From Candidatus Dojkabacteria bacterium (GTDB lineage: Bacteria > Patescibacteriota > Dojkabacteria > JAFGLO01), in the NCBI GenBank assembly GCA_016927995.1, contig JAFGLO010000007.1, forward strand, positions 17,467 to 81,466: a stretch of 64,000 nucleotides of DNA, given 5' to 3'. The notes under the pieces were generated by a model. The model was not told where the DNA came from, searched no databases, and saw nothing but the letters and a program-made list of their open reading frames with translations. The first letter of the stretch is position 1. The number at the start of each line of letters is the position of its first letter. The translations under genes and the position numbers were made by a program. Shown here one piece after another: positions 4,904 to 33,418 of this stretch.

Positions 4904-6217
4904 ATGAACATAACAATCGATCGTACTTGGAAATCTATTCTTTCAACACTTGAAAAGGATATTCCACCATTCACCTTAATCACAGGCAAAGCAGGAACAG
5001 GAAAATCCACACTACTTACACACTTTTTCGAGACCACATCTAAGAATTCCGTACTACTTGCACCAACAGGCGCAGCAGCAGTAAATATTGGCGGACAAAC
5101 AATCCACTCATTCTTTGGATTTACCCCAGCAACTACCATAAAAGATGTATTCGCCAAGGCGAAGAACAAATCCAACAACGTACACAAAGTAATAGAAAAA
5201 CTCGACTGCATTATCATTGATGAAATCTCTATGGTTAGAGCAGATCTTTTGGACTTTGTAGATACATTTCTTCGAATCTCAAAAGCATCAGATCAACCGT
5301 TTGGTGGGCTTCCAATAATTGCATTTGGCGACCTATACCAGCTTCCACCCATACTACAAAGAGACGAAATGGATGAATTTTCAATAATGTATGAAAGCCC
5401 ATACTTTTTTTCATCTCAAGTTATAAAACGAATCACAAAAGAAAGAGCTCTAAGTGCATTTACACTTGATACAATTTATCGTCAACGTGACGAAAAGTTT
5501 ATAAATATTCTTAATTCCATAAGAGAGGGCAACGCATCATTTCAAGGGTTAACATACCTAAATCAAAATTGCTTTAAGCTAACAAGTTCCGAAACAGACT
5601 CAATTTATTTAACAACCACAAATCAGAAGGCCGATATGGTAAATGAGCAGAGACTAGCGACTATTTCTAACCCGGTAAGAACATATACCGCGTATGTTTC
5701 CGGAGATTTTAAAGAAAACGCATTTCCAACACAAGAAATTCTAAAATTAAAAAAGGGTGCTCGAATAATGATGCTAAACAACGACAAAGACGGCAGATGG
5801 ATAAACGGAACACTCGGAAATATTACAGAACTCAAGGATGGATCTGTACTTGTACAGCTCGACGGACAAGCTGGACAAAATACAACTCATGAAATTTTCC
5901 CCAACGAATGGGAAATATTTAAAACAAGCTGGGACAATTTAACAAAATCTTTAAAAAAAGAGGTTGTTGGTTCATTTATTCAACTTCCTATAAGACTTGC
6001 CTGGGCAATTACAATCCACAAGAGCCAAGGTAAAACATTTGAAAAAGTTGTTATTGATCTTGAACGTGGTGCATTTAGCGAAGGGCAAACCTATGTTGCC
6101 CTAAGTAGGTGCACAAGTTTAGAAGGGTTAACCCTTTCACGACCTGTTAAACCGTCCGACATAAAAGTCGACCAACGAATTACAGATTTCTTGCAATCTG
6201 TTTCATCAATTGTTTAA
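4904..6217 (+). CDS. PIF1/RecD-like ATP-dependent DNA helicase (AAA_30/PIF1 family)
   Basis: Walker A GKAGTGKST, IIDEISMV (Walker B), C-terminal ITIHKSQGKTFEKVVIDL...TYVALSRCTSLEGL motif of PIF1-like helicases. Confidence 0.75.
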   Translation: MNITIDRTWKSILSTLEKDIPPFTLITGKAGTGKSTLLTHFFETTSKNSVLLAPTGAAAVNIGGQTIHSFFGFTPATTIKDVFAKAKNKSNNVHKVIEKLDCIIIDEISMVRADLLDFVDTFLRISKASDQPFGGLPIIAFGDLYQLPPILQRDEMDEFSIMYESPYFFSSQVIKRITKERALSAFTLDTIYRQRDEKFINILNSIREGNASFQGLTYLNQNCFKLTSSETDSIYLTTTNQKADMVNEQRLATISNPVRTYTAYVSGDFKENAFPTQEILKLKKGARIMMLNNDKDGRWINGTLGNITELKDGSVLVQLDGQAGQNTTHEIFPNEWEIFKTSWDNLTKSLKKEVVGSFIQLPIRLAWAITIHKSQGKTFEKVVIDLERGAFSEGQTYVALSRCTSLEGLTLSRPVKPSDIKVDQRITDFLQSVSSIV

Positions 6218-6280
6218 TCATCACCCGTTTCATCATTTATTCGTTCATCATCCGTTTCGTCATTTATTCGTTCATTATTG
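6218..6280. repeat. Tandem repeat, 2 x 27 bp (CATCAYCCGTTTCRTCATTTATTCGTT) immediately after helicase stop
   Basis: Direct reading of sequence. Confidence 0.7.
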
Positions 6281-6497
6281 TAGAGACAGGTCTAGACCGA
6301 CATGTGTGCATAAAATCCACGAAAGACTCTAACTTCCCAAACGATATGATTAGAGTCTAAATAATCCATATTTTACGGGGGTCCTGAAAGAAATAATAAG
6401 ATCCAACACAACTTTACACACACCCGCACCCCCAACTTACAGAATGATTACCTAATAACGAATCTACAACTGTGTGTCGGTCTAGACCTGTCCCTAC
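6280..6497. mobile_element. MITE-like non-coding element copy A (~218 bp) with palindromic terminal inverted repeats GTAGRGACAGGTCTAGACCGACA
   Basis: Terminal inverted repeats at 6280-6302 and 6475-6497. Internal motifs (CGAAAGACT, CCATATTTTACG, CACACCCGCACCCCCA) are shared with copy B at 23436-23658. No ORF. Confidence 0.55.
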
Positions 6498-6519
6498 CCA
6501 AAACGTATAATGGAATATT

Positions 6520-7500
6520 ATGATAATCGTTACGGGCGCATCGGGTCATCTTGGAAATGTGCTGGTTCGATACCTTTTAACCATGGAAAAAGAGGTTGGG
6601 GTAGTGGACTTGGATCCCCAAAACGATCCCGTACTAAAAGATCTTCCGGTAAAAATGTATAAAGGCGACGTTCGTGATCTTGATTTTCTTATAAAAACTT
6701 TTAGCCAGGCAGAATATGTCTTTCATTTAGCAGGAATTGTTGCAATATCGCCAGGTAAAGAAGATCTCATGTACGACGTGAATATAAATGGAACTAAAAA
6801 CGTTGTTGCCGCCTGCATGAAGACAGGTATAAAGCGACTAGTATATACAAGTTCAGTACACGCTTTACATGAACCACCCAAAGGAATTCCACTAACAGAA
6901 AAACTAGGCGATCCCGAAAAAGTTTTAGGCCCATATGCAAAAACAAAAATATTGGGAACCCGTGAAATATTCAAAGGAATAAAAGCGGGGCTTAATGCCG
7001 TAATTACCTATCCATCCGGAGTTATTGGTCCATATGATTTTAAAGGTTCAGAAATGGGGAACCTTATAAACGACTACATCAAGGGGAAATTTAGATTTTA
7101 TCTTGATGGTGCCTATAATTTTGTTGACGTACGTGATATTGCACGAGGACTTTGGCTGGCAAAGGAAAAAGGCAAATCCGGTGAAGACTATATTCTTTCC
7201 GGATATACAATAACCGTTAAAGAACTGTTCCGCAGCCTGTCTGAACTTACGGGAATAAAACAACCTAAATTTAGAATGCAGACCTGGTTTGCAAAATTTG
7301 TAGCACCGCTTGCTGTCTTGTACTATAGAACTACAAAAACTACTCCTGTATTTACACCATACTCCATAAACGTTTTGAACTCTAATGCCGAGATGAGTTT
7401 TAAAAAAGCAAGTGCCGACCTGGGTTATACAGTTAGACCGCTTATAGACACGCTTAGCGCAATTATCCGTTGGCGAAAAGGGCAGAATATTGAAATTTAA
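6520..7500 (+). CDS. NAD(P)-dependent epimerase/dehydratase (extended SDR) family oxidoreductase
   Basis: N-terminal Rossmann IIVTGASGHLGNVLVRYLL; YAKTK (YxxxK) catalytic motif. Confidence 0.8.
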   Translation: MIIVTGASGHLGNVLVRYLLTMEKEVGVVDLDPQNDPVLKDLPVKMYKGDVRDLDFLIKTFSQAEYVFHLAGIVAISPGKEDLMYDVNINGTKNVVAACMKTGIKRLVYTSSVHALHEPPKGIPLTEKLGDPEKVLGPYAKTKILGTREIFKGIKAGLNAVITYPSGVIGPYDFKGSEMGNLINDYIKGKFRFYLDGAYNFVDVRDIARGLWLAKEKGKSGEDYILSGYTITVKELFRSLSELTGIKQPKFRMQTWFAKFVAPLAVLYYRTTKTTPVFTPYSINVLNSNAEMSFKKASADLGYTVRPLIDTLSAIIRWRKGQNIEI

Positions 7501-8839: not shown

Positions 8840-9460
8840 ATGAAGAAAACAACATTTGTATACACAATAGGCATTGTCTTATTCTGTGGAGTTATAGGGC
8901 TTACAATAAGGTCACTCAGAAGCAGCTTTCTTACCTTAACCCCCTTTGTTATTTCAGTGATTACGCTGTTAATCCTTTTTCTTGAAACCAAAGAAAACAA
9001 AAATCTTTTATTTCCAGTAGCTATTACATATTTAATTACCTTTATAAGTGAAGTCATTGGAGTAAATACGGGATTCATTTATGGAAACTATGAATACAGT
9101 ACCCGTCTCGGACCCAAAATCATTAGTACACCTCCTTTAATTGGCTTTTTGTGGGTTGTACTCTTGCTTGGGTCCTTAAATATTTTCAAGGACCAAAAGC
9201 ATCCAATTATTAAAAGCCTTTGTGTAGCAAGTCTAATGACAGCGATAGATATAATAATAGAACCTGTTGCCATTAAACTTGACTTCTGGAGCTGGTTTGG
9301 GAAAAATCCACCTTTATACAATTATATTTCATGGTTTTTAGTAAGCTTTATAGGAGCCTTAGTTCTCAATGGATATAAACCCAAAGATAATTTATCCAAG
9401 ACAGTATTTTGGTTAATTGCAATATTTTTCTTTTTACTTAACCTTACTTATATACAATGA
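8840..9460 (+). CDS. Carotenoid-biosynthesis-associated membrane protein (PF04240/DUF422, CruF-like hydratase family), tentative
   Basis: 206 aa, about 6 TM helices; motif EVIGVNTGFIYGNYEYSTRLGPKI...TPPLIGFLW resembles the GxxTGxPFGxYxY core of PF04240. Only one His, so it is not a Blh/Brp dioxygenase. 3' end overlaps the start of the next gene. Confidence 0.4.
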   Translation: MKKTTFVYTIGIVLFCGVIGLTIRSLRSSFLTLTPFVISVITLLILFLETKENKNLLFPVAITYLITFISEVIGVNTGFIYGNYEYSTRLGPKIISTPPLIGFLWVVLLLGSLNIFKDQKHPIIKSLCVASLMTAIDIIIEPVAIKLDFWSWFGKNPPLYNYISWFLVSFIGALVLNGYKPKDNLSKTVFWLIAIFFFLLNLTYIQ

Positions 9461-10914
9461 AAAAAATTATCGTAATCGGAGGAGGAATAAGCGGACTTGC
9501 AACTGCTGCACTTTTAGCAAAAGACAGTAATAACGTAACTATTTTGGAGAAAAACGAGATGCTAGGTGGCAGAGGTAGAATGTGGAAATCCAATGGCTTT
9601 TCTTTTGATATGGGACCATCTTGGTATATGATGCCCGAAGTGTTTGATGAATTTTTCGCAATATTTGGACACAAAGTTTCGGACTTTTATCACTTAGAGC
9701 AGCTTGATTCACACTACAAAGTATTTATATCAAACGGAAATTCCTACAATATAACCAAAGACATTAACGCAAACAAATCGCTTTTTGAGAGAGCCCAGCA
9801 GGGTGGAGGCAAAGCCTTAGAAAAATATCTAGACAAATCAAAAGATACTTATGAAATCGCAACAAAAAATCTAATGTATTTTGACTATGAAAATCTTACA
9901 GACATTTTAAAACCCGATGTTTTATACAAACTTACTCAATTAAATTTACTAAAAACTTTTCACAAATATATAACCAGGTTTTTCAAATCAAAAGATCTTC
10001 AAAAAATTATAGAGTTTACAACCGTTTTTCTTGGCGGATCACCATATAACACACCTGCATTTTATAATTTAATATCACATGCAGACTTTAACCTTGGAAT
10101 CTGGTATCCAATGGGTGGAATGTATGAAGTAGTAAAAGCGCTGGAATCACTTTGCAAAGAGCTTGGAGTAACTATCAAAACCAGTGAACCGGTCACCAAA
10201 GTCAATATAGAAAACGGTATTGCCCAAACCGTTGAAACAACAAAAGGTCACTACAATACCGATGCCGTAGTAAATACGGCTGATAGGCAATATTTTGAAA
10301 CAAGGGTGCTTTCCGACAAAACCCAAAGAACCAATTGGGACAAAGCAGTTATGTCACCCTCTGCATTTAATATTTACATAGGTATAAACAAAAGGCTAAA
10401 TGGAGTTGAACATCATAACTTATACTTTAATGACACGTGGGAAACTCATTTCAAAGAGGTATATAAAAACCCTGATTGGCCGGAAACACCATCATATTAC
10501 TTCCATGTACCATCTAAAACCGATCCTGGTGTAGCGCCACAGGGAAGTGAATCAATATTTATTTTGGTGCCTGTAGCACCGGGACTTAACGATTCAGAAG
10601 AAATAAGAGCGGCTTTCGCTACAAAGATGATAACTCACCTCGAGAAATTAACCGGTCAGTCAATAAGTCCACACATTGTTACTCAAAGGATTTTCTCACG
10701 CAGAGATTTTACTTCTGATTATAACAGCTTTAAGGGTTCGGCATTTGGACTTGCACATACTCTATTCCAAACGGCTCTTTTTAGACCTCTAAATAAAGAC
10801 AAACGGGTAGAAAATGTATTTTATGCCGGTCAATATACAAATCCCGGTGTAGGAGTCCCAACAGGTATAATTTCGTCCATGATTGTACGAAAACTAGTTG
10901 CTAATATGCCGTAA
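9457..10914 (+). CDS. CrtI/CrtD-family FAD-dependent carotenoid desaturase (phytoene desaturase family oxidoreductase)
   Basis: N-terminal FAD fold VIGGGISGLATAALLAK...LEKNEMLGGRGR; 485 aa; C-terminal YAGQYTNPGVGVPTGIISS typical of CrtI family. Confidence 0.75.
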   Translation: MKKIIVIGGGISGLATAALLAKDSNNVTILEKNEMLGGRGRMWKSNGFSFDMGPSWYMMPEVFDEFFAIFGHKVSDFYHLEQLDSHYKVFISNGNSYNITKDINANKSLFERAQQGGGKALEKYLDKSKDTYEIATKNLMYFDYENLTDILKPDVLYKLTQLNLLKTFHKYITRFFKSKDLQKIIEFTTVFLGGSPYNTPAFYNLISHADFNLGIWYPMGGMYEVVKALESLCKELGVTIKTSEPVTKVNIENGIAQTVETTKGHYNTDAVVNTADRQYFETRVLSDKTQRTNWDKAVMSPSAFNIYIGINKRLNGVEHHNLYFNDTWETHFKEVYKNPDWPETPSYYFHVPSKTDPGVAPQGSESIFILVPVAPGLNDSEEIRAAFATKMITHLEKLTGQSISPHIVTQRIFSRRDFTSDYNSFKGSAFGLAHTLFQTALFRPLNKDKRVENVFYAGQYTNPGVGVPTGIISSMIVRKLVANMP

Positions 10915-10954
10915 GGTTCACAAAACCATAGGACCCAAAAACTATACTAATTTA

Positions 10955-11716
10955 CTAGTTTGGCCTTAAGGTTCCGGCCCAGACTTGCCAAGCAAGCGCA
11001 GATTTAGCAAACAGGCTTAAGAAAATATAGACTTTTTCGCCAAAGGTATAATCTTTCCATTTGCCAATTTTTTTGTACTGAAGCACCATGTTTATGGCAA
11101 AACAGTTAAAGAAAACAAAGATTGAAACAAAGATCCAATATACAAAGTCGGGTGGGGAAGCTTCTTTTCCAATGTATGATCCCAAATAAAGTGCAATGTT
11201 TACCCACGGGAGAATTCCGGCTATCGATCCAAAGATAAATGAAAGCCAGTTTGTCTTTTTCGTAGTTTGGTTGTGAACCTCCATTATGAGTCCAAACAAA
11301 ATCATCATTGCATTAAGCCCAAACATGGAAATCAAGGAGCTAAACTCATAAATTCCGACAAGCATGGCAATAATCACTATCATTACCGAAGAGCTGAATG
11401 TATATTCTATCCATCGTGCATAGTTTATTCCTTTTTTAAGGTTTCGAACGTACCAGTCAAATACTCTGGGTAGGGTAAGAATAAAGTGTGCAGATGAAGA
11501 CATAAAAAGAAAAAGTGCCACAGCTGGGCCAATTGGTATCTCAAAAAGTGTTTTTATGTATGGTGATAAACTCTGAGTAGCCGGATTAAACTCTAAAAAA
11601 TTCCCAATCACAGGCAACGCAAAATCGGTGCTTAAGCTTAGCATCAAAATTCCTTGAATTAGGTGGAAAACACCCATCCAGAAGTTGTACGTGCGAAGTT
11701 TCGCAAATTTCCCCAT
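10955..11716 (-). CDS. Heliorhodopsin (7-TM retinal-binding protein)
   Basis: 253 aa, 7 predicted TM helices. N-terminal NFWMGVFHLIQGILMLSLSTDFALP matches the heliorhodopsin N-terminus pattern. His18, His77, Glu104 (WIEYTFSS) and Lys238 (LFAKSALAW, last helix) sit at a constant -3 offset from the H23/H80/E107/K241 residues described for heliorhodopsin 48C12. Aligned from memory, not computed. Confidence 0.7.
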   Translation of the reverse strand: MGKFAKLRTYNFWMGVFHLIQGILMLSLSTDFALPVIGNFLEFNPATQSLSPYIKTLFEIPIGPAVALFLFMSSSAHFILTLPRVFDWYVRNLKKGINYARWIEYTFSSSVMIVIIAMLVGIYEFSSLISMFGLNAMMILFGLIMEVHNQTTKKTNWLSFIFGSIAGILPWVNIALYLGSYIGKEASPPDFVYWIFVSIFVFFNCFAINMVLQYKKIGKWKDYTFGEKVYIFLSLFAKSALAWQVWAGTLRPN

Positions 11717-13011: not shown

Positions 13012-13085
13012 TCGGAGTGGTGGGACTCGAACCCACGACCTCACGGTCCCAAACCGTGCATTCTAGCCAACTGAACTACACTCCG
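13012..13085 (-). tRNA. tRNA-Pro (anticodon TGG)
   Basis: Reverse complement CGGAGTGTAGTTCAGTTGGCTAGAATGCACGGTTTGGGACCGTGAGGTCGTGGGTTCGAGTCCCACCACTCCGA folds as a cloverleaf. Anticodon loop is TTTGGGA with a GTTCGAGTC T-loop. Confidence 0.85.
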
Positions 13086-13336: not shown

Positions 13337-13394
13337 CCTCTATCTGTCGATAGACAGGCAAACCGTGCATTCTAGCCAACTGAACTACACTCCG
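13337..13394 (-). pseudogene. Truncated duplicate of tRNA-Pro (positions 1 to about 44) with a 20-nt hairpin inserted in the anticodon loop
   Basis: 35 nt identical to tRNA-Pro 5' half (13360-13394 vs 13051-13085). TCTATCTGTCGATAGACAGG is inserted between anticodon-loop residues. The sequence continues GGACCGTGA and then diverges, with no T-arm. Confidence 0.6.
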
Positions 13395-15439: not shown

Positions 15440-16090
15440 TTGGCAAAACTAGATTTCAAAAAACAGGAGAAACCTCTTTATATGCCTAAACCTGACGAAC
15501 CAATAACAATAGACGTTCCCAAAATGAACTTTCTTATGATTGATGGGATAGGGGCCCCCGAATCAAAACAGTTTGCACAATCAGTCGAAGCTCTTTATTC
15601 CGTTTCCTACACAATAAAATCAATGCCTAAAAAAGGCTTGGAAATCCCGGGTTATTATGACTATGTAATGGCGCCACTCGAGGGATTGTGGTGGTCAAAA
15701 GATATTAAAACAAAAGGATTTACGCCGGATAGAAACAAGTGGTTATGGACACTAATGATTCGTCAACCGGAATTTATTGACAGAATAATCTCTTTTGGCG
15801 CAATTCAACAGATAATCGATAAAAAGAAAAACCCAATTGCCGAAAACATAAAGTTCGTGGAATTTAAAGAAGGTCTAAGCGTCCAGATAATGCATATTGG
15901 TCCTTACAAAACCGAAGAAACAACTGTTGATAAACTTCACAAATTTATCAATGACAACAGATTCGAACTTAATGGAAAACATCATGAAATATATATTTCA
16001 GACCCACGAAAGGCAGATCCCTTAAAAATGAAGACGGTTATACGATATCCCATCCGTAGGGACTTATACAATCATGGGGTGTCGGTTTAA
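15440..16090 (+). CDS. GyrI-like small-molecule-binding domain protein
   Basis: PKMNFLMIDGIGAP...ALYSVSYTIK pattern typical of GyrI-like/effector-binding domain proteins; 216 aa. Confidence 0.6.
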   Translation: MAKLDFKKQEKPLYMPKPDEPITIDVPKMNFLMIDGIGAPESKQFAQSVEALYSVSYTIKSMPKKGLEIPGYYDYVMAPLEGLWWSKDIKTKGFTPDRNKWLWTLMIRQPEFIDRIISFGAIQQIIDKKKNPIAENIKFVEFKEGLSVQIMHIGPYKTEETTVDKLHKFINDNRFELNGKHHEIYISDPRKADPLKMKTVIRYPIRRDLYNHGVSV

Positions 16091-16103
16091 ACCCGCCCCT
16101 ACG
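16077..16103. other. Imperfect palindrome GGGGTGTCGGTTTAAACCCGCCCCTACG overlapping the stop codon of the GyrI-like gene
   Basis: The 20-mer GGTTTAAACCCGCCCCTACG is the exact reverse complement of 26763-26782. This is followed by 2 x 22-bp tandem AATTATTTACAACCCRGTTTC. Confidence 0.6.
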
Positions 16104-16123
16104 AATTATTTACAACCCAGTTT

Positions 16124-16930
16124 CTAATTATTTACAACCCGGTTTCGACCAAGCTCCTTAGCGCGATAAAGCCTTATATCCGCGATCTTTACAAGTTCCA
16201 CGGCATTTGCCGCATCACTGGGTAGAGTTGAAACACCTATACTAACAGTGATGTTTAAATCGAGAGCGGAAATAATCCCGGAGATTCTTCTTGCAACATT
16301 TGCAGCCGGAATATTTTCCGTATCGGGCAACAAAACAACAAACTCCTCACCTCCATATCGATAGGCTCTGTCCATGGGACGAATATTTCCCGATATATGT
16401 TTAGCAACGGTCGTAAGTAATTTATCACCGGCTTGATGACCGTAACTATCGTTGTATTTTTTAAAAAAGTCTATATCTATCATAAGGCAGGAAATATGCG
16501 TTTTATACTTTTGGGCATCTAAAACAAGTGTTTCTATGTCTTTATCAAAATGACCTCTATTATAAAGCCCGGTCAAAGCGTCACGATTTAATTTCTCAAT
16601 AACGTTTCTATACTTCATTCCTCTAACAAGAACCGGTCTTATCTCTTTTATAATCTCGTCAAAGAGCTGTTCATCCTGGGTTGTGAACTTCTCCCGTTCG
16701 GGAACAATTAAATCAATAACACCTTTTACATCCTTTAAAATATCAAAAGGGATTGCTTTCACAACAAAGCCCATATCCGCCTTAGCCGAGTAATTTGCAG
16801 ACAAGTCAGAATTTTTTATTGCGTTAATTCTTACAGTGGGTAAATCAAAAGAAACGCTTACATCTTCATTATGTTCATCCGTCGACTTACAACGCGCCGT
16901 TTTATCATAACAAACATGAGAAATAACCAA
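16124..16930 (-). CDS. Diguanylate cyclase (GGDEF domain) with N-terminal uncharacterized sensor region
   Basis: RYGGEEFVVLLPDT (GGEEF active site) and upstream RGHFD/ D-x-D context; 268 aa. Confidence 0.85.
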   Translation of the reverse strand: MVISHVCYDKTARCKSTDEHNEDVSVSFDLPTVRINAIKNSDLSANYSAKADMGFVVKAIPFDILKDVKGVIDLIVPEREKFTTQDEQLFDEIIKEIRPVLVRGMKYRNVIEKLNRDALTGLYNRGHFDKDIETLVLDAQKYKTHISCLMIDIDFFKKYNDSYGHQAGDKLLTTVAKHISGNIRPMDRAYRYGGEEFVVLLPDTENIPAANVARRISGIISALDLNITVSIGVSTLPSDAANAVELVKIADIRLYRAKELGRNRVVNN

Positions 16931-19833: not shown

Positions 19834-20631
19834 ATGACAATCATTCAAGCCATTGTCTTAGGAATTATCCAAGGAATCACCGAACTTCTACCAATATCAA
19901 GTTCAGGACATTTGGCACTTGTACCCAAACTTTTAGGCTGGGAAGTTCAAAGTATCGTGTTTGACGAATTTGTGCATATGGCAAGTTTCCTAGCCATTTT
20001 AATCTTCTTCTGGAAAGATCTTTGGAAAATAGCTACTGACACAATTAAATCACTCGGCAAATTGCCGAAATTTTTTAATTCGATGGGGTTTAAACTTGTA
20101 ATTGCCACAATTCCAACACTCATTGTAGGAGTTCTATTTAAAGACAAAATCGAAGAGCTAACCGGCAACCATGTTGTTATTGCCATATCACTTATCTCCC
20201 TTGGTATAGTCTTTTTGTTTATTGAAACCCTAGTAAAAAACAATAAAAAAATACTCGACCAGGTATCCGTAAAAGACTCACTAGTCGTTGGACTTGCACA
20301 ACCGATTGCACTTATTCGAGGTGTATCCAGATCAGGCGTAACAATAACTGCAGGACTTTTCAGTGGGCTCACAAAGGAGTCGGCAGCCAGATTCTCGTTT
20401 TACATGTCGGCGGTTGTTATGGCAGCATTATCGGTTAAAGGTGTTTACGATATTTTTACTCACCCAAATTCCGAGACCTTGCTAGTCATAATCGTCGGAT
20501 CTATTGCCTCGTTTTTATCAAGCCTTCTTGCGATAAAGCTTTTATTCGTAGCAATGAAAACCAACACATTTAAATGGTTTGGCATTTATCGAATAATTCT
20601 CGGGATTATTACATTACTCCTTCTTTCGTAG
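19834..20631 (+). CDS. uppP: Undecaprenyl-diphosphate phosphatase
   Basis: N-terminal AIVLGIIQGITELLPISSSGHL and later GVSRSGVTITAGL motifs diagnostic of UppP/BacA. Confidence 0.9.
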   Translation: MTIIQAIVLGIIQGITELLPISSSGHLALVPKLLGWEVQSIVFDEFVHMASFLAILIFFWKDLWKIATDTIKSLGKLPKFFNSMGFKLVIATIPTLIVGVLFKDKIEELTGNHVVIAISLISLGIVFLFIETLVKNNKKILDQVSVKDSLVVGLAQPIALIRGVSRSGVTITAGLFSGLTKESAARFSFYMSAVVMAALSVKGVYDIFTHPNSETLLVIIVGSIASFLSSLLAIKLLFVAMKTNTFKWFGIYRIILGIITLLLLS

Positions 20632-20655
20632 ACGGGTCTAGACCTGTCTCTACGG
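20628..20655. repeat. Solo palindrome GTAGACGGGTCTAGACCTGTCTCTAC (same core as the MITE terminal inverted repeats) overlapping the uppP stop codon
   Basis: Core GACGGGTCTAGACCTGTC is a near-perfect palindrome identical to the inverted-repeat core at 6286-6303 and 23447-23464. Confidence 0.6.
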
Positions 20656-20708
20656 ATTGTATATAATGACAACATAATTAGACGTCGTTTATTTTATTCC
20701 TGCTGCCC

Positions 20709-22793
20709 ATGTTAAGCTCACTCCTAAAACCCAAATCCGTTGCAATAATTGGGGCATCACGCAATCCATCAAAAATTGGCTCGCGCGTATTAAAAAACAT
20801 AATTTCCGGCGGGTTTGAGGGAGATGTATATCCTGTAAATCCTGAAGCAGAGACAATACAAGGAATAACAGCCTTTGCCTCAGTATCAGATATTCCAACC
20901 ATTCCGGATATTGCAGTAATCGTTATTCCGGCAGAATATGTGCCCACGGCAGTCGAGGAATGTGTAAAAAAACAAGTACCAAACATAATTGTTATAACCG
21001 CAGGTTTCTCTGAAACAGGAAAGCATGGTGCATTTTTGGAGGAACAGGTAAAAGAGCGGCTCAAAGACTCAAATACCCGGCTTCTTGGGGTGAACTGTCT
21101 TGGGCTTATTACTCAACGCTCAAAACTTAATGCCTCGTTTGCATCATTCATGCCAAATGATGGAAATGTAGCATTTTTGTCACAATCCGGAGCATTTGGA
21201 ACATCAATCCTTGATTGGACTGCAACTTTCAACGTTGGAGTAAAGTATTTTATCTCACTGGGAAATAAAACAGATCTTACAGAAACCGATTTTTTGGAAA
21301 ATTTTCGAGATGAAGAAGCAATAAAATGCATTGCACTATACCTAGAAGACATCGAAGACGGTCGGAGATTTGCCTCACTTGTACGAAGTATATCACCTTA
21401 TAAACCGATTATTCTTTTAAAGCCCGGAAAATCTAAGGAAAGTAAAAGTGCAATCTCTTCGCATACCGGAAGTATGGTAGGGGACATAGAAATTGCCAAA
21501 CAAGCCGCAAAGCAAAACGGTATAATCGAAGTTTCGACAATGCGTGAGCTTTTTAATATGGCCCGCTTTGTATCGTGGAACGAAATTACCGAAACCCAAA
21601 GAGTTGCAATTGTAACAAATGCCGGAGGACCGGCAGCACATACTACCGATGTTTTAGTAGAAGCTTCACTTACCCTTGCCAAACTTTCAGAAGAAACAAA
21701 AAAGAACCTAAAAAAGATTTTACCAACCGCCGCAAGCGTGAAAAATCCTGTAGATCTTTTGGGTGATGCACCTGCCAAACGGTATGAAGATGCCCTTAAC
21801 CTTGTATTTAAAGATCCGAATGTTGATTCAATCATTGTTGTCCTAACTCCTCAGGCAATGACTCAAATTCCCGAAACGGCCAACGCCATAAGCAAAATAA
21901 TTGAGCAAACCACAAAACCGATTCTTACTTCATTTATTGGCGGAGCCCAGGTAATAAAAGGCTTAAACGTCCTTGAAAAGCGAAACATTCCCTGTTTTGA
22001 ATTTCCAGAAGATGCAGTTTCAGTACTTACACACATTAATAACTACCAAATCCAAAAAAATAAAATACTTGCCTCAAATTATCCGTCGGACAAAAAAGAA
22101 AATCAGGAGAAATACTTAAAGATCCGTGCTATTCTACAAAAAGTGGCTGTAGTCTCCCATGTAGTTCCGGTAACTATATCAAATGAAATCTTTAAAACCC
22201 TAGGAATAAAAATTCCCGATTACATAACGGTAAACTCTTCCGAAGAAGCAATCTCTTTTGGAAGCACACATAAATCAATCGTACTTAAGCTTGATTCTCC
22301 TCAGATTGTACATAAGACAGAGTTCTCCGCAGTCAAAATAGGGCTGGATACCCCCGAAAAAATTGCTACTGCATTTTCAGAATTAACAAATACAGCTAAC
22401 TCCGAAATGATTTCAAACCATACAATAATGGCTCAGAAGCAGATTTTAAACGGTCTTGAAACAATTCTGGGCGTAAAGATCGACACAAACTTTGGTCCTA
22501 CAATAATGTTCGGATCAGGTGGAGTTACAACAGAGTTATTCCACGATATATCACAAAGTGTAGCTCCGGTATCAAACAAAGATATTTTGGATATGGTAAC
22601 TTCACCAAAAGTTTACAAACTAATAAAAGGCTTTAGAGGAAAACCCGGGTACGATATAAAAGAGCTTTTAAAAACAATAATAATCCTCAACAACCTTGTC
22701 CTAAATGTTCCGGAAATAAAAGAAATCGAGATTAACCCAATGATCCTAACCAGAGAAAGCGGGTATGCAGTCGATATACGATGTATTGTATAA
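20709..22793 (+). CDS. Acetate--CoA ligase (ADP-forming), fused alpha/beta (NDP-forming acyl-CoA synthetase)
   Basis: N-terminal CoA-binding SVAIIGASRNPSKIGSRVL...VYPVNP, succinyl-CoA-synthetase-like flavodoxin domain, C-terminal ATP-grasp; 694 aa. Confidence 0.85.
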   Translation: MLSSLLKPKSVAIIGASRNPSKIGSRVLKNIISGGFEGDVYPVNPEAETIQGITAFASVSDIPTIPDIAVIVIPAEYVPTAVEECVKKQVPNIIVITAGFSETGKHGAFLEEQVKERLKDSNTRLLGVNCLGLITQRSKLNASFASFMPNDGNVAFLSQSGAFGTSILDWTATFNVGVKYFISLGNKTDLTETDFLENFRDEEAIKCIALYLEDIEDGRRFASLVRSISPYKPIILLKPGKSKESKSAISSHTGSMVGDIEIAKQAAKQNGIIEVSTMRELFNMARFVSWNEITETQRVAIVTNAGGPAAHTTDVLVEASLTLAKLSEETKKNLKKILPTAASVKNPVDLLGDAPAKRYEDALNLVFKDPNVDSIIVVLTPQAMTQIPETANAISKIIEQTTKPILTSFIGGAQVIKGLNVLEKRNIPCFEFPEDAVSVLTHINNYQIQKNKILASNYPSDKKENQEKYLKIRAILQKVAVVSHVVPVTISNEIFKTLGIKIPDYITVNSSEEAISFGSTHKSIVLKLDSPQIVHKTEFSAVKIGLDTPEKIATAFSELTNTANSEMISNHTIMAQKQILNGLETILGVKIDTNFGPTIMFGSGGVTTELFHDISQSVAPVSNKDILDMVTSPKVYKLIKGFRGKPGYDIKELLKTIIILNNLVLNVPEIKEIEINPMILTRESGYAVDIRCIV

Positions 22794-23382: not shown

Positions 23383-23436
23383 TAACCCCCGTAAACCCCA
23401 TAACCCCCGTAAACCCCGTAACCCCCGTAAACCCCG
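23383..23436. repeat. Tandem repeat 3 x 18 bp (TAACCCCCGTAAACCCCR) between signal peptidase stop and MITE copy B
   Basis: Direct reading. Confidence 0.8.
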
Positions 23437-23658
23437 TAGTAGGGACAGGTCTAGACCGACACCCATGTATAGAAGTTGGTAATAGTATCCACTTTTGATT
23501 AACACGACGAAAGTCTAGATAACCCATATTCTACGTATGACTACAAAAAAAATGATTCGATAGAAACACAGCTTGCGCACACCCGCACCCCCATTCGCCA
23601 AAACTCTCATTCACCAGCATGTCTACGCAACCGTGTCGGTCTAGACCTGTCCCTACGG
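23436..23658. mobile_element. MITE-like non-coding element copy B (~223 bp) with palindromic terminal inverted repeats
   Basis: Terminal inverted repeats TAGGGACAGGTCTAGACCGACA (23440-23461) and TGTCGGTCTAGACCTGTCCCTA (23634-23655). It shares CGAAAGTCTAGATAACCCATATTCTACG and CACACCCGCACCCCCA blocks with copy A. Confidence 0.55.
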
Positions 23659-23705
23659 AAAATGATACGGAAAATGGCACGGAAAATGGCACGGAAAACG
23701 ATACC
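23659..23705. repeat. Tandem repeat 4 x ~12 bp (AAAATGRYACGG) after MITE copy B
   Basis: Direct reading. Confidence 0.75.
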
Positions 23706-25220: not shown

Positions 25221-26753
25221 ATGAGCAAGGTTACAACAGGCGATCTAATTGGACAACGAAATCAGCGACTTGCCAAGATTAAAAAGCTAAGAGAATTGGG
25301 AATTAACCCATATCCTGCACGCTCAAATAAAGAGTATAGTAATAATGAAATTGTTGAAAATTACAAAGACTTCGAGGGCAAAACTGTTACATTAACTGGT
25401 CGCATAATGACAAAGCGCGAAATGGGAAAGCTTGCATTTGCAACGATTCAGGACGCATCAGGCAGAATTCAGTTATATATAAAAAAAGATGAAATCAAAC
25501 CACTAGATATTAAAACTCAAACACTTGGATTTTCCGAACTTAAGCTTTTAGATATTGGTGACATTGTAGAAGCCACTGGCGAAGTTACCAAAACACAAAC
25601 AGGCGAAATCTCAATATTAGTTGACACCATTAAGCTTCTAACAAAGGCTATTCGACCCTTACCCGAAAAATGGGCAGGTTTGTCCGATCAGGAAGAAAGA
25701 TTTCGAAGGCGATATCTTGACATGACAATGAATCCTGAAGTTCGCAACCGATTTGTTAAACGTTCCATTTTCTGGCAGGCAGTGCGTGATTTTATGATTC
25801 AAACAGGGTTTGTTGAGATAAATATCCCCATATTAGAGGCTGTAACCGGTGGCGCAGACGCAAAGCCGTTTGTCACCCACTATGATGCATTAGATCAGGC
25901 TTTTTACCTACGAATATCTCACGAGCTTCCTTTAAAGCGGCTACTTGGTGGCGGATATGAAAAGGTATTTGATATTGGTCCTCGATTTAGAAATGAAGGA
26001 ATAGATGCAGAGCATTTACCCGAGCATATTGCAATGGAATTTTACTGGGCTTATGCAGATTTCAAAGAGGGAATGAAGTTTACAAAAGAGCTTTTTAGAT
26101 ACGTTATTAAAAAAACTTTTGGAACCCTAAAGTTTAAAATTCGTGGATTTGACGTTGATTTAAGCAAAGAGTGGGAGGAAAAGGATTTTGGAACACTTCT
26201 AAAAGACCGATTTAACGTTGACATTTACAATGATTCTGTAGAGTCCCTAAAGATTGTACTTAAAAAATCCGGGGGACACGTAGAAAAAGACATGAACAGA
26301 AGCAGGGTAGTGGACAATTTATGGAAAGTAATCCGAAAAGACATTGCCGGTCCCATATTTGTTACTGGAATTCCTAAGTTTTTGTCGCCACTTTCTAAGT
26401 CTGATCCTGAAAGGACTAACATTGTTGAACGATTTTTCCCAATTATTGCAGGAAGTGAGCTTGCTAACGCATTTTCAGAACTCAATGATCCAATAGATCA
26501 GTTCGAACGATTTAAAGAGCAGCAAGACATGCGTGAAGCAGGGGATTCTGAAGCTCAAATGATGGATATTGATTTTGTGGAAATGCTTGAGTACGGAATG
26601 CCTCCTGCATTCGGTTATGGCATGAGCGAGCGAGTCTTTTGGTTCTTCGAAGATGTTACTGCTCGTGAAGGAGTGCCTTTTCCGCAAATGCGAAACGACG
26701 TGGACGAAACCACAAAGAAGATTTACGGGAAGAAATATGTGCTTGCAAAATAA
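25221..26753 (+). CDS. lysS: Lysine--tRNA ligase (class II)
   Basis: OB-fold anticodon-binding N-domain (TLTGRIMTKREMGKLAFATIQD), class II motifs FRNEGIDAEHLPEH, MEFYWAY, and C-terminal GMPPAFGYGMSERV. Confidence 0.9.
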   Translation: MSKVTTGDLIGQRNQRLAKIKKLRELGINPYPARSNKEYSNNEIVENYKDFEGKTVTLTGRIMTKREMGKLAFATIQDASGRIQLYIKKDEIKPLDIKTQTLGFSELKLLDIGDIVEATGEVTKTQTGEISILVDTIKLLTKAIRPLPEKWAGLSDQEERFRRRYLDMTMNPEVRNRFVKRSIFWQAVRDFMIQTGFVEINIPILEAVTGGADAKPFVTHYDALDQAFYLRISHELPLKRLLGGGYEKVFDIGPRFRNEGIDAEHLPEHIAMEFYWAYADFKEGMKFTKELFRYVIKKTFGTLKFKIRGFDVDLSKEWEEKDFGTLLKDRFNVDIYNDSVESLKIVLKKSGGHVEKDMNRSRVVDNLWKVIRKDIAGPIFVTGIPKFLSPLSKSDPERTNIVERFFPIIAGSELANAFSELNDPIDQFERFKEQQDMREAGDSEAQMMDIDFVEMLEYGMPPAFGYGMSERVFWFFEDVTAREGVPFPQMRNDVDETTKKIYGKKYVLAK

Positions 26754-26759
26754 TGATTT

Positions 26760-26790
26760 CCGTAGGGGCGGGTTTAAACCGGCATAGGGT
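26760..26790. other. Imperfect palindrome CGTAGGGGCGGGTTTAAACCGGCATAGGG just after lysS stop
   Basis: Shares exact 20-mer (inverted) with 16084-16103; core GGGGCGGGTTTAAACCCGCCCC would be a perfect 22-bp palindrome. Confidence 0.6.
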
Positions 26791-33111: not shown

Positions 33112-33180
33112 TTATGAATGAATAAAGTTAATGATAACATTATATCAGTTAGTGACAAAAAAGTGAACTATGGGCTCTAG

Positions 33181-33336
33181 GGTGTGTTAGCCCTGGGGCC
33201 TGGGGAGCAAAATTAGATGTTCCCGTGTGTACAAACTCTGACAATTTTAAGATACGTGTCATTATATCTCTCTGTGAAATCGACGAGTACTGTCATTTAG
33301 CTAATTTTGCTCCCCAGGCCCCAGGGCTAACACACA
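33181..33336. repeat. 36-bp perfect inverted repeat (GGTGTGTTAGCCCTGGGGCCTGGGGAGCAAAATTAG / CTAATTTTGCTCCCCAGGCCCCAGGGCTAACACAC) flanking an 84-bp AT-rich spacer
   Basis: Direct reading; its arms are GC-rich compared with the surrounding sequence; lies in divergent intergenic region. Confidence 0.7.
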
Positions 33337-33418
33337 CTAACTATCCACCAAGCACTGTTTACTCATTTTAATAAACAATGTATACTTACAGGTTTTGTAA
33401 GTTAATCTACCTCAATAA

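Follow-up and report, generated by a model that had tools for sequence, protein, structure and literature searches.

Gene-end repeats of a Dojkabacteria genome and their relationship to the GTAG double-foot palindromes of RAYT transposases

A stretch of 64,000 nucleotides from Candidatus Dojkabacteria bacterium (GenBank assembly GCA_016927995.1, contig JAFGLO010000007.1, positions 17,467 to 81,466; hereafter referred to as the window) carries two non-coding elements that share a terminal inverted repeat and lie beyond the 3′ ends of genes. A first interpretation from the letters alone (the sequence-only reading) took them for a family resembling miniature inverted-repeat transposable elements (MITEs), with hairpin-forming ends and short tandem repeats on their flanks. 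To which class of repeat do these elements belong, and which enzyme might move them? Here we report that the outer halves of their two ends together make up a 28-bp palindrome, which recurs in the genomes of distant phyla and is linked there to genes for REP-associated tyrosine transposases (RAYTs; REP, repetitive extragenic palindrome). We consider it likely that the repeats of the window belong to the GTAG 'double-foot' REP family of TnpA_REP/RAYT subclass 2.4, and that the two elements, each 218 bp long, are that hairpin with an expanded loop. What is peculiar here is the 172-bp loop with its two conserved blocks, together with the flanking duplications, on very few copies.

Anatomy and folding of the elements

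Four sites in the window carry the 23-nt repeat GTAGRGACAGGTCTAGACCGACA, where none would be expected by chance: 6280–6302 (+), 6475–6497 (−), 23439–23461 (+) and 23634–23656 (−). These sites form two inverted pairs, each of which delimits a non-coding element of exactly 218 bp, as the sequence-only reading had recognized; its interval for the first element (6280–6497) is exact, but that for the second (23436–23658) was 3 and 2 nt too wide. Each element consists, in this order, of GTAGGGACAGG-TCTAGACC, GACA...TGTC and GGTCTAGA-CCTGTCCCTAC. The feet and the lower stem (GTAGGGACAGG and CCTGTCCCTAC) are retained in both elements, and the 10-bp centre GGTCTAGACC is present at both sides of the interior, so that about 180 bp (GACA...TGTC) separate the two centres. 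Joined together, the outer halves of the two ends give the 28-bp palindrome GTAGGGACAGGTCTAGACCTGTCCCTAC. The terminal repeat had been called a near-perfect palindrome, which is correct over the 10-bp core GGTCTAGACC but not beyond it; similarly, the 18-bp palindrome described for the family exists in the solo copy, or when a left and a right end are joined, but not in a single end.

The predicted folds agree with this layout. The consensus 28-mer forms a 12-bp stem (−12.2 kcal/mol as DNA, z −5.9) and the solo copy a weaker DNA hairpin (−6.7 kcal/mol). A single terminal repeat has no stable fold (z about 0), contrary to the hairpin-forming ends proposed earlier. Paired with each other, the ends of an element form a stem of 23–24 bp, which is the source of nearly all the predicted stability: the single-strand fold of element 1 (−62.8 kcal/mol, z −7.0) is mostly terminal stem, and that of element 2 (−74.3 kcal/mol, z −8.7) has a terminal stem of 24 bp. 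Because single ends do not fold and the two ends pair, we describe the elements as a double-foot hairpin with an expanded loop.

Conserved internal blocks had been noticed at first reading; only two stretches of the interior are well conserved (blocks A and B; Table 1), each of which is confined to elements 1 and 2 in the window and the fetched loci. Outside the blocks, the two interiors are about 41% identical in an ungapped comparison, their predicted structures are unlike each other, and their inner inverted repeats extend over only 4–5 nt, with about 7–11 further matches over the next 16–17 positions. They share no reading frame, and a hidden open reading frame (ORF) in the elements was rejected (stops in all six frames, no codon-position pattern). 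No direct repeat lies outside the feet (...CATTATT before and CCAAAAC after element 1; ...CCCCGTA before and GGAAAAT after element 2). Element 1 is reproduced intact in Logan contig L078, an independent assembly (run SRR13394437); contig L077 of the same run breaks within the left end of element 2, as expected at a repeat.

Could the 218-nt unit instead be a structured non-coding RNA gene, or part of one, with the terminal repeats as its closing helix, blocks A and B as functional single-stranded or protein-binding segments, and the REP likeness secondary? Length, orientation and block positions are equal in both copies despite about 59% divergence elsewhere, the predicted folds are very stable (z −7 and −8.7), and both copies lie between co-directional genes. 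We nevertheless regard this as very unlikely: the fold energy comes almost entirely from the terminal stem, the interior predictions differ between the copies, promoter and terminator signals are inconsistent, blocks A and B were not found outside the elements in the searched collections, and the feet belong to a DNA-level REP family. A known RNA family was rejected, as Rfam gave no match for the elements at gathering or E-value thresholds (gathering thresholds returned two tRNAs only in the window, and around element 1 nothing relevant appeared even at E ≤ 1). The conserved interior had been taken as a sign of functional cargo (a small RNA, promoter or terminator); this suggestion is not borne out, given that Rfam gives no match, that promoter and terminator signals are not consistent, with no terminator-like sites at the elements, and that no third copy of the blocks was found in any searched collection.

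The palindrome and RAYT genes in other genomes

When about 185,000 species-level genomes were scanned with GTAGRGACAGGTCTAGACC, 76 loci (L001–L076) were returned, to which the counts below refer. The matches are nearly always a perfect 28-mer that starts with GTAG and ends with CTAC; the basic unit is the 28-bp hairpin GTAG-GGACAGGTC-TA-GACCTGTCC-CTAC. Its hosts are Patescibacteria of several classes, Omnitrophota, Lutibacter, a Caldilineaceae metagenome-assembled genome (MAG), Bacteroidota and others, including MAGs labelled Gammaproteobacteria (label as recorded), and one MAG has up to about 15 palindrome loci. Across 109 distinct palindrome flanks, no strongly conserved motif follows CTAC, and there is a mild purine bias at positions +1 and +2. 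Viral contigs, examined for a phage vector, gave no match to either palindrome variant.

Clustering of the ORFs from the 76 loci revealed one dominant family, represented at 11 loci, whose ORF spans the palindrome. At these 11 loci, the palindrome lies in frame within an IS200-like Y1 transposase ORF, between its HuH and Tyr motifs, and is read as VGTGLDLSL or RDRSRPVPT. The palindrome-spanning ORFs are homologous, encode about 170–245 amino acids and contain MPNH.HGI and WQRSFYD, and most of them also YI..NP. The NH.H motif is present in ten of the 11 (the ORF of L061 is cut off at the start of the locus), WQ in all 11, and Y..NP in ten (L001 has YIKNNS). These ORFs match Pfam Y1_Tnp (PF01797) above its cutoff. 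Their best NCBIfam match is the REP-associated tyrosine transposase, at 57–59 bits and thus below the equivalog cutoff of 80, and their only PDB match, a weak one, is E. coli TnpA_REP (4ER8).

More than 1,600 database homologues were found in Patescibacteria, Omnitrophota, Cloacimonadota and Bacteroidota, several of which are named RayT by JGI. Among the best 120 of these, NH.H occurs in 115, WQ in 118, Y[IV]xxNP in 106 and YIxNNP in 61. The patterns of the palindrome-encoded peptides are matched at the same position by 98 of the 120, and most of the others look similar by eye; VGTGRDLSL is the commonest form, and the two forms seen above occur in 11 (VGTGLDLSL) and 8 (RDRSRPVPT). Some homologues carry tandemly repeated arm units.

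These properties correspond to a described group of enzymes. TnpA_REP subclass 2.4, which is Bertels RAYT group 4, has a median length of 194 residues and the motifs NH[IFV]H, WQ and YIxNNP, with a variable insertion between β3 and αC that contains short repeats (Quentin et al. 2018, PMC6006769). Its 'double-foot' REPs have GT[AG]G at the 5′ end and C[TC]AC at the 3′ end and are inserted in frame within the tnpA_REP gene, and its distribution is patchy across phyla, suggestive of horizontal transfer (PMC6006769). As both the palindrome and its associated genes fit this description, the palindrome family of the window is of a known kind. That survey placed its emphasis on Cyanobacteria and Bacteroidetes (PMC6006769).

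The occurrence of one 28-mer verbatim across distant phyla, located within the transposase gene itself, suggests that a RAYT gene, when transferred between hosts, may bring along the substrate of its product as a copy within itself, which would explain how the 28-mer comes to be shared. For annotation, peptides such as VGTGLDLSL or RDRSRPVPT within a predicted protein mark the repeat, as do contig breaks at its sites. Concerning the host side, the ADP-forming acetyl-CoA synthetase (ACS) encoded in the window is identical to an NCBI protein of a Candidatus Dojkabacteria MAG, and its next relative has only 49% identity. A relative at that distance keeps the uppP–ACS gene order and has no palindrome in the spacer, consistent with a gain in the present lineage; the relative is too diverged for empty-site boundaries to be read from it.

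Outside the RAYT genes, the palindrome has further settings. Palindromes are depleted in long ORFs (38% versus 73% of random positions). About 38% of them lie in stop-free stretches of at least 200 codons, some in ORFs of 800–1000 codons, so that many appear to be in-frame insertions into ordinary genes, reminiscent of intragenic REPs and Rickettsia palindromic elements. In Magasanikbacteria MNVC01 (L039 830–917, L042, L014, L072 and L033), the 28-mer is flanked by recurring modules of about 30 bp in varied combinations; L039 contains a perfect 88-bp nested palindrome that starts with GTAGGAG and ends with CTCCTAC, and one module pair corresponds to the insertion within the RAYT gene of that genome (L072). 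These modules suggest that the copied units may be larger and centred on the palindrome. In Patescibacteria JAMDAY01 (L010, L020, L027, L034, L035, L046 and L051), the palindrome is part of a longer repeat whose flanks are conserved as CCATTGCCAAGCTGGTCATTGATGTCAAAGAC and, on the opposite side, AAGGACAGGGGCGGAGCAAACAAAGGAAGTAG (L034 and L051 have AAGGACAGGGGCGGAGCAAACAAAGGAAGTAG only); ORFs that overlap on the two strands fall into clusters shared by some of the loci. Two different hairpins share one common pair of feet in L018 at about 2640–2700 (GTAGGGACAGGTCTAGACCTGTCC-TCCAAGGA-GGGAGGGTCAAGACCCTCCCCTAC), and two 29-bp palindrome units stand in direct tandem in L037 (2286–2344).

The layout of the palindrome, 11-6-11, also resembles a recombination site. 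A tyrosine recombinase, for which there is a gene at 1075–2181, might have acted on a dif-like 11+6+11 site (GTAGGGACAGG-TCTAGA-CCTGTCCCTAC) and inserted there a small circle with the sequence GTGTCGG-TCTAGA-CCGACAC, leaving attL/attR-like hybrids; the element ends are exactly those that a crossover in the shared centre would yield. We judge this extremely unlikely: the palindrome is present in multiple copies per genome and often inside ORFs, including RAYT genes, its fully symmetric core gives no directionality, and a circle of about 190 bp would be very small. The REP model covers the GTAG/CTAC feet and the RAYT link without extra assumptions.

The split form was not found at these loci: the ...ACCGACA junction of the window is present in none of the 76. 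A degenerate junction pattern returned 34 loci, most of which contain an unrelated GC-rich coding motif, but three or four are short-loop double-foot hairpins, one of which (L097) spans 71 nt with a stem of 21 bp and a loop of 29 nt. Intermediate loop sizes therefore exist elsewhere. It had been proposed that finding only the original copies, with neither presence or absence polymorphism among related genomes nor conservation of the blocks beyond the two copies, would refute a mobile family; this applies in half to the 218-bp composite, of which only these copies were found, and clearly does not apply to the palindrome, which is widespread.

The expanded-loop interpretation has one main rival. 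IS1397 and ISKpn1 target REPs in enterobacteria, and the interior of about 180 bp (GACA...TGTC) could likewise be a miniature DDE-type transposon inserted into the centre of a 28-bp palindrome already in place, the loop of the REP hairpin, with GGTCTAGACC as its 10-bp target-site duplication. Such insertions would account for GGTCTAGACC at both sides of the interior in both elements and for a simple palindrome that is widespread while the split form was found in this genome alone. Moreover, the GACA/TGTC junction is also joined to a second palindrome variant with the centre GGTTTAAACC (see below), as independent insertions would give. The inner inverted repeats, however, are just 4–5 nt long, and neither a transposase nor a copy of the interior outside palindromes was found in the window or the loci; furthermore, no target-site duplication lies outside the feet, and among the inverted repeats strong conservation is confined to the outer 23 bp, which end exactly at the GTAG/CTAC feet. 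We consider this alternative unlikely.

Gene ends, tandem arrays and a possible mechanism

The sequence-only reading missed a sister variant, GTAGGGGCGGGTTTAAACCGRCA, whose centre GGTTTAAACC replaces GGTCTAGACC and is likewise palindromic. With its two copies, the family occupies five sites in the window, all at or directly past the 3′ ends of ORFs (Table 1), and 14 kb of added flank beyond the window contain no further copies. All full and solo copies begin with GTAG and finish with CTAC. The first impression, of non-coding inverted-repeat elements that recur at the 3′ ends of genes, stands, and so does that of a solo palindrome overlapping the uppP stop codon, which is supplied by the TAG of its GTAG. 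That every copy abuts a stop codon is true of the solo copy, but elements 1 and 2 lie 62 and 63 nt downstream of stop codons, with tandem arrays intervening. Two copies supply stop codons: the solo copy that of uppP, and the truncated sister-variant copy that of a GyrI-like ORF (15440–16090), through the TAA (16088–16090) in its TTTAAA centre. The lone left end of the sister variant has no right partner that we could find. An exact-protein look-up of the PIF1-like helicase gene upstream of element 1 gave no record.

Table 1 Coordinates of the repeat family and its adjoining arrays in the window
Feature	Position	Strand	Description
Element 1	6280–6497	+	Left end GTAGAGACAGGTCTAGACCGACA, right end TGTCGGTCTAGACCTGTCCCTAC; interior 172 bp with blocks A and B
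Element 2	23439–23656	+	Orientation as element 1; 23-nt ends complementary without mismatch; blocks A and B
Block A	6352–6377 (element 1), 23510–23535 (element 2)		26 nt, 21 positions identical
Block B	6419–6434 (element 1), 23578–23593 (element 2)		CACACCCGCACCCCCA; 16/16 identical
Solo palindrome	20628–20653	.	Imperfect double-foot palindrome GTAGACGGGTCTAGACCTGTCTCTAC; TAG at 20629–20631 is the uppP/BacA stop codon
Sister variant, truncated copy	16056–16102	+	GTAGGGAC, 16 nt, TGTCGGTTTAAACCCGCCCCTAC
Sister variant, lone left end	26762–26784	+	GTAGGGGCGGGTTTAAACCGGCA; 8 nt past the stop of a class II aminoacyl-tRNA synthetase-like ORF (25221–26753)
Array, period 27	6200–6275	+	2.8 copies, reaching the GTAG of element 1 (to 6279); score 103
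Array, period 9/18	23383–23438	+	(TAAMCCCCG)x6 = 18 bp x3, its end against the GTAG of element 2; score 105
Array, period 12	23654–23704	+	4.2 units, the first beginning at the TAC of the element 2 right foot; each unit starts with YAC; score 67
Array, 2x22 bp	16104–16146	+	Directly after the CTAC foot of the sister-variant copy; score 79

The short tandem repeats reported to bracket the full copies are real, and all of them adjoin feet: the four highest-scoring tandem arrays of the window each lie against a GTAG or CTAC foot. The first unit of the array at 6200 holds the last codons and the stop (6215–6217) of the PIF1-like helicase gene, and the distal unit of the array at 16104–16146 overlaps the 3′ end of a GGDEF gene on the minus strand. 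As these two arrays include the last codons of neighbouring genes, they are duplications of the local flank. In the window and at other loci, array repeat units often start or finish with the trinucleotide of a foot, and an adjacent array accompanies ten of the 76 palindromes elsewhere (13%, versus 4.7% of random positions). The short repeats in the insertion domain of subclass 2.4 enzymes are the same phenomenon as the foot arrays, inside the gene (P0240 and P0158).

The anatomy of the sequence, the kinship of the palindrome and its link to RAYT genes elsewhere are shown by the data; that the elements are mobilized, which of the two forms gave rise to the other, and how the arrays arose, we infer along the following lines. 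In characterized Y1 HUH enzymes, including E. coli TnpA_REP, the foot of a single-stranded DNA hairpin is recognized and nicked. By analogy, a transposase would act on the foot in the same way where DNA becomes single-stranded at the replication fork. During replication, the ends of a single-stranded 218-bp element would pair as a stem of 23–24 bp that presents the same foot as the simple palindrome. Because the foot and lower stem have been kept exactly, the elements are plausible RAYT substrates in trans. They are probably non-autonomous and mobilized in trans, and the enzyme that could nick and move them would be a RAYT whose gene lies in another part of the genome or was once there. Since GGTCTAGACC reads the same on both strands, its inverted copies count as direct repeats as well, and slippage between them would collapse a 218-bp element to a solo palindrome like that at 20628. 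The arrays at the feet are best taken as traces of events at the hairpin base, either stalling or a nick followed by slipped re-synthesis, by which the adjacent gene-end sequence would become duplicated. To their host the elements would mostly be passengers located in 3′ regions.

Several observations weigh against assigning the 218-bp elements to the double-foot family. Neither the window nor 14 kb of added flank contains a RAYT gene. The junction 20-mer GRGACAGGTCTAGACCGACA has no match in 241 million metagenome records, and because the exact junction was found nowhere else, two full and two partial copies are all that the 218-bp form is known from. Taken singly, the terminal repeats do not make REP hairpins, and the 172-bp spacer exceeds the 20–100 bp of REP dimers (PMC3733652). 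The enrichment of arrays beside palindromes in other genomes is only about threefold.

The absence of a transposase from the window, already stated at first reading, was confirmed in searches that included tblastn of nine RAYTs. The same search led us to reject a decayed REPtron, in which the remains of a RAYT gene would lie between a pair of palindromes, as it matched only the palindrome-encoded residues. A more ambitious version of the double-foot interpretation, in which the REP of this candidate phyla radiation (CPR) lineage is a larger RAYT-carried mobile unit, the blocks are cargo (a protein-binding site or a small RNA) and nicking makes the gene-end duplications, appears to us decidedly unlikely; if true, it would make REP/RAYT systems a driver of 3′-end gene diversification in minimal genomes.

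Two copies coincide with promoter-like signals. In element 1 and the solo copy, the TAGACC of the palindrome is followed, after a 17-nt spacer, by TATAAT (6483–6511 and 20639–20666). The genes closely downstream are that of an epimerase, with its ATG at 6520, and that of ACS, with its ATG at 20709, respectively. These −35-like and −10-like pairs may be hybrid promoters. A general role of this kind was rejected, as the TAGACC-17-TATAAT spacing is not enriched at palindromes elsewhere.

Three other features of the window are unrelated to the GTAG family or lie apart from it. A 162-bp hairpin element between divergent genes (33178–33339) has 39-nt arms that are 97% complementary (TAGGGTGTGTTAGCCCTGGGGCCTGGGGAGCAAAATTAG...), an RNA fold of −83.9 kcal/mol (z −9.9) and a sequence unrelated to the GTAG family, and no copy of it was present in any fetched locus. 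An exact 36-nt direct repeat (13050–13085 and 13359–13394) has one copy in a tRNA-Pro gene (13012–13085, minus strand), beside its 5′ end, and the second at a distance of 309 bp; the repeat resembles the remnant of an integration site, and Logan contig L077 begins at it. In the region 8840–11716, a heliorhodopsin gene (PF18761, 10955–11716, minus strand) adjoins a gene of the amine-oxidase/FAD-oxidoreductase family (PF01593/PF01266) and a Caroten_synth gene (PF04240).

Comparison with known repeat classes

Classical bacterial MITEs, of which the Correia elements are an example, are non-coding, intergenic sequences of about 100–250 bp with terminal inverted repeats, which can create hybrid promoters. 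The 218-bp elements share the size, the lack of coding sequence, the terminal inverted repeats and the position between genes. By contrast, their ends are REP feet, no parental DDE insertion sequence is known, and no target-site duplication lies outside the GTAG...CTAC ends. The MITE-like label therefore gives way to the REP/RAYT frame, which fits instead. An origin of the whole element as a DDE-transposon-derived MITE was also rejected, there being no flanking direct repeat and no transposase in the window, and the 10-bp duplication being internal only.

The sequence-only reading also pointed to IS200/IS605-derived palindrome-associated elements. The enzyme link is sound, since the palindrome lies inside RAYT-like genes elsewhere and these belong to the same Y1 HUH transposase superfamily (PF01797), but the element class is not. 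IS200/IS605 ends have differing subterminal hairpins and no terminal inverted repeats, whereas the ends in the window are inverted repeats with GTAG/CTAC feet; membership was rejected, as these 23-nt ends have no hairpins of their own and there is no strong flank motif.

REPINs and other REP dimers (bacterial interspersed mosaic elements; Bertels & Rainey 2011, PMC3116915; PMC3733652) come closer. In both cases, inverted GTAG-tagged ends pair into one long hairpin in a heads-outward arrangement, that of a tail-to-tail dimer, and the elements are presumed to be non-autonomous and dependent on a single-copy RAYT. Moreover, members of GTAG REP families lie past the ends of ORFs or within genes, and some form inverted dimers whose spacers measure 20–100 bp (Di Nocera 2013, PMC3733652). 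The ends in the window differ in that they are not individually foldable REPs and enclose a spacer that is not self-complementary. A REPIN was accordingly rejected: inverted ends are present, yet single ends have no stable fold (z about 0), and the 172-bp spacer does not pair with itself.

The closest counterparts are the double-foot REPs. The two full copies of the window differ from them in that about 180 bp, including two conserved blocks, split the hairpin, and the setting differs in that the window contains no RAYT gene and the host is a Dojkabacteria (CPR) MAG. REP/RAYT systems, mostly studied in Proteobacteria and Cyanobacteria, extend with this family to the ultra-small genomes of Patescibacteria (CPR), and the loop-expanded 218-bp form and the tandem duplications at gene ends provide small, concrete leads on how hairpins remodel their surroundings. 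In common with the double-foot REPs, the family has GT[AG]G/C[TC]AC feet around a long perfect stem, adjoining short repeats, a patchy distribution across phyla, and copies at gene ends and sometimes within genes.

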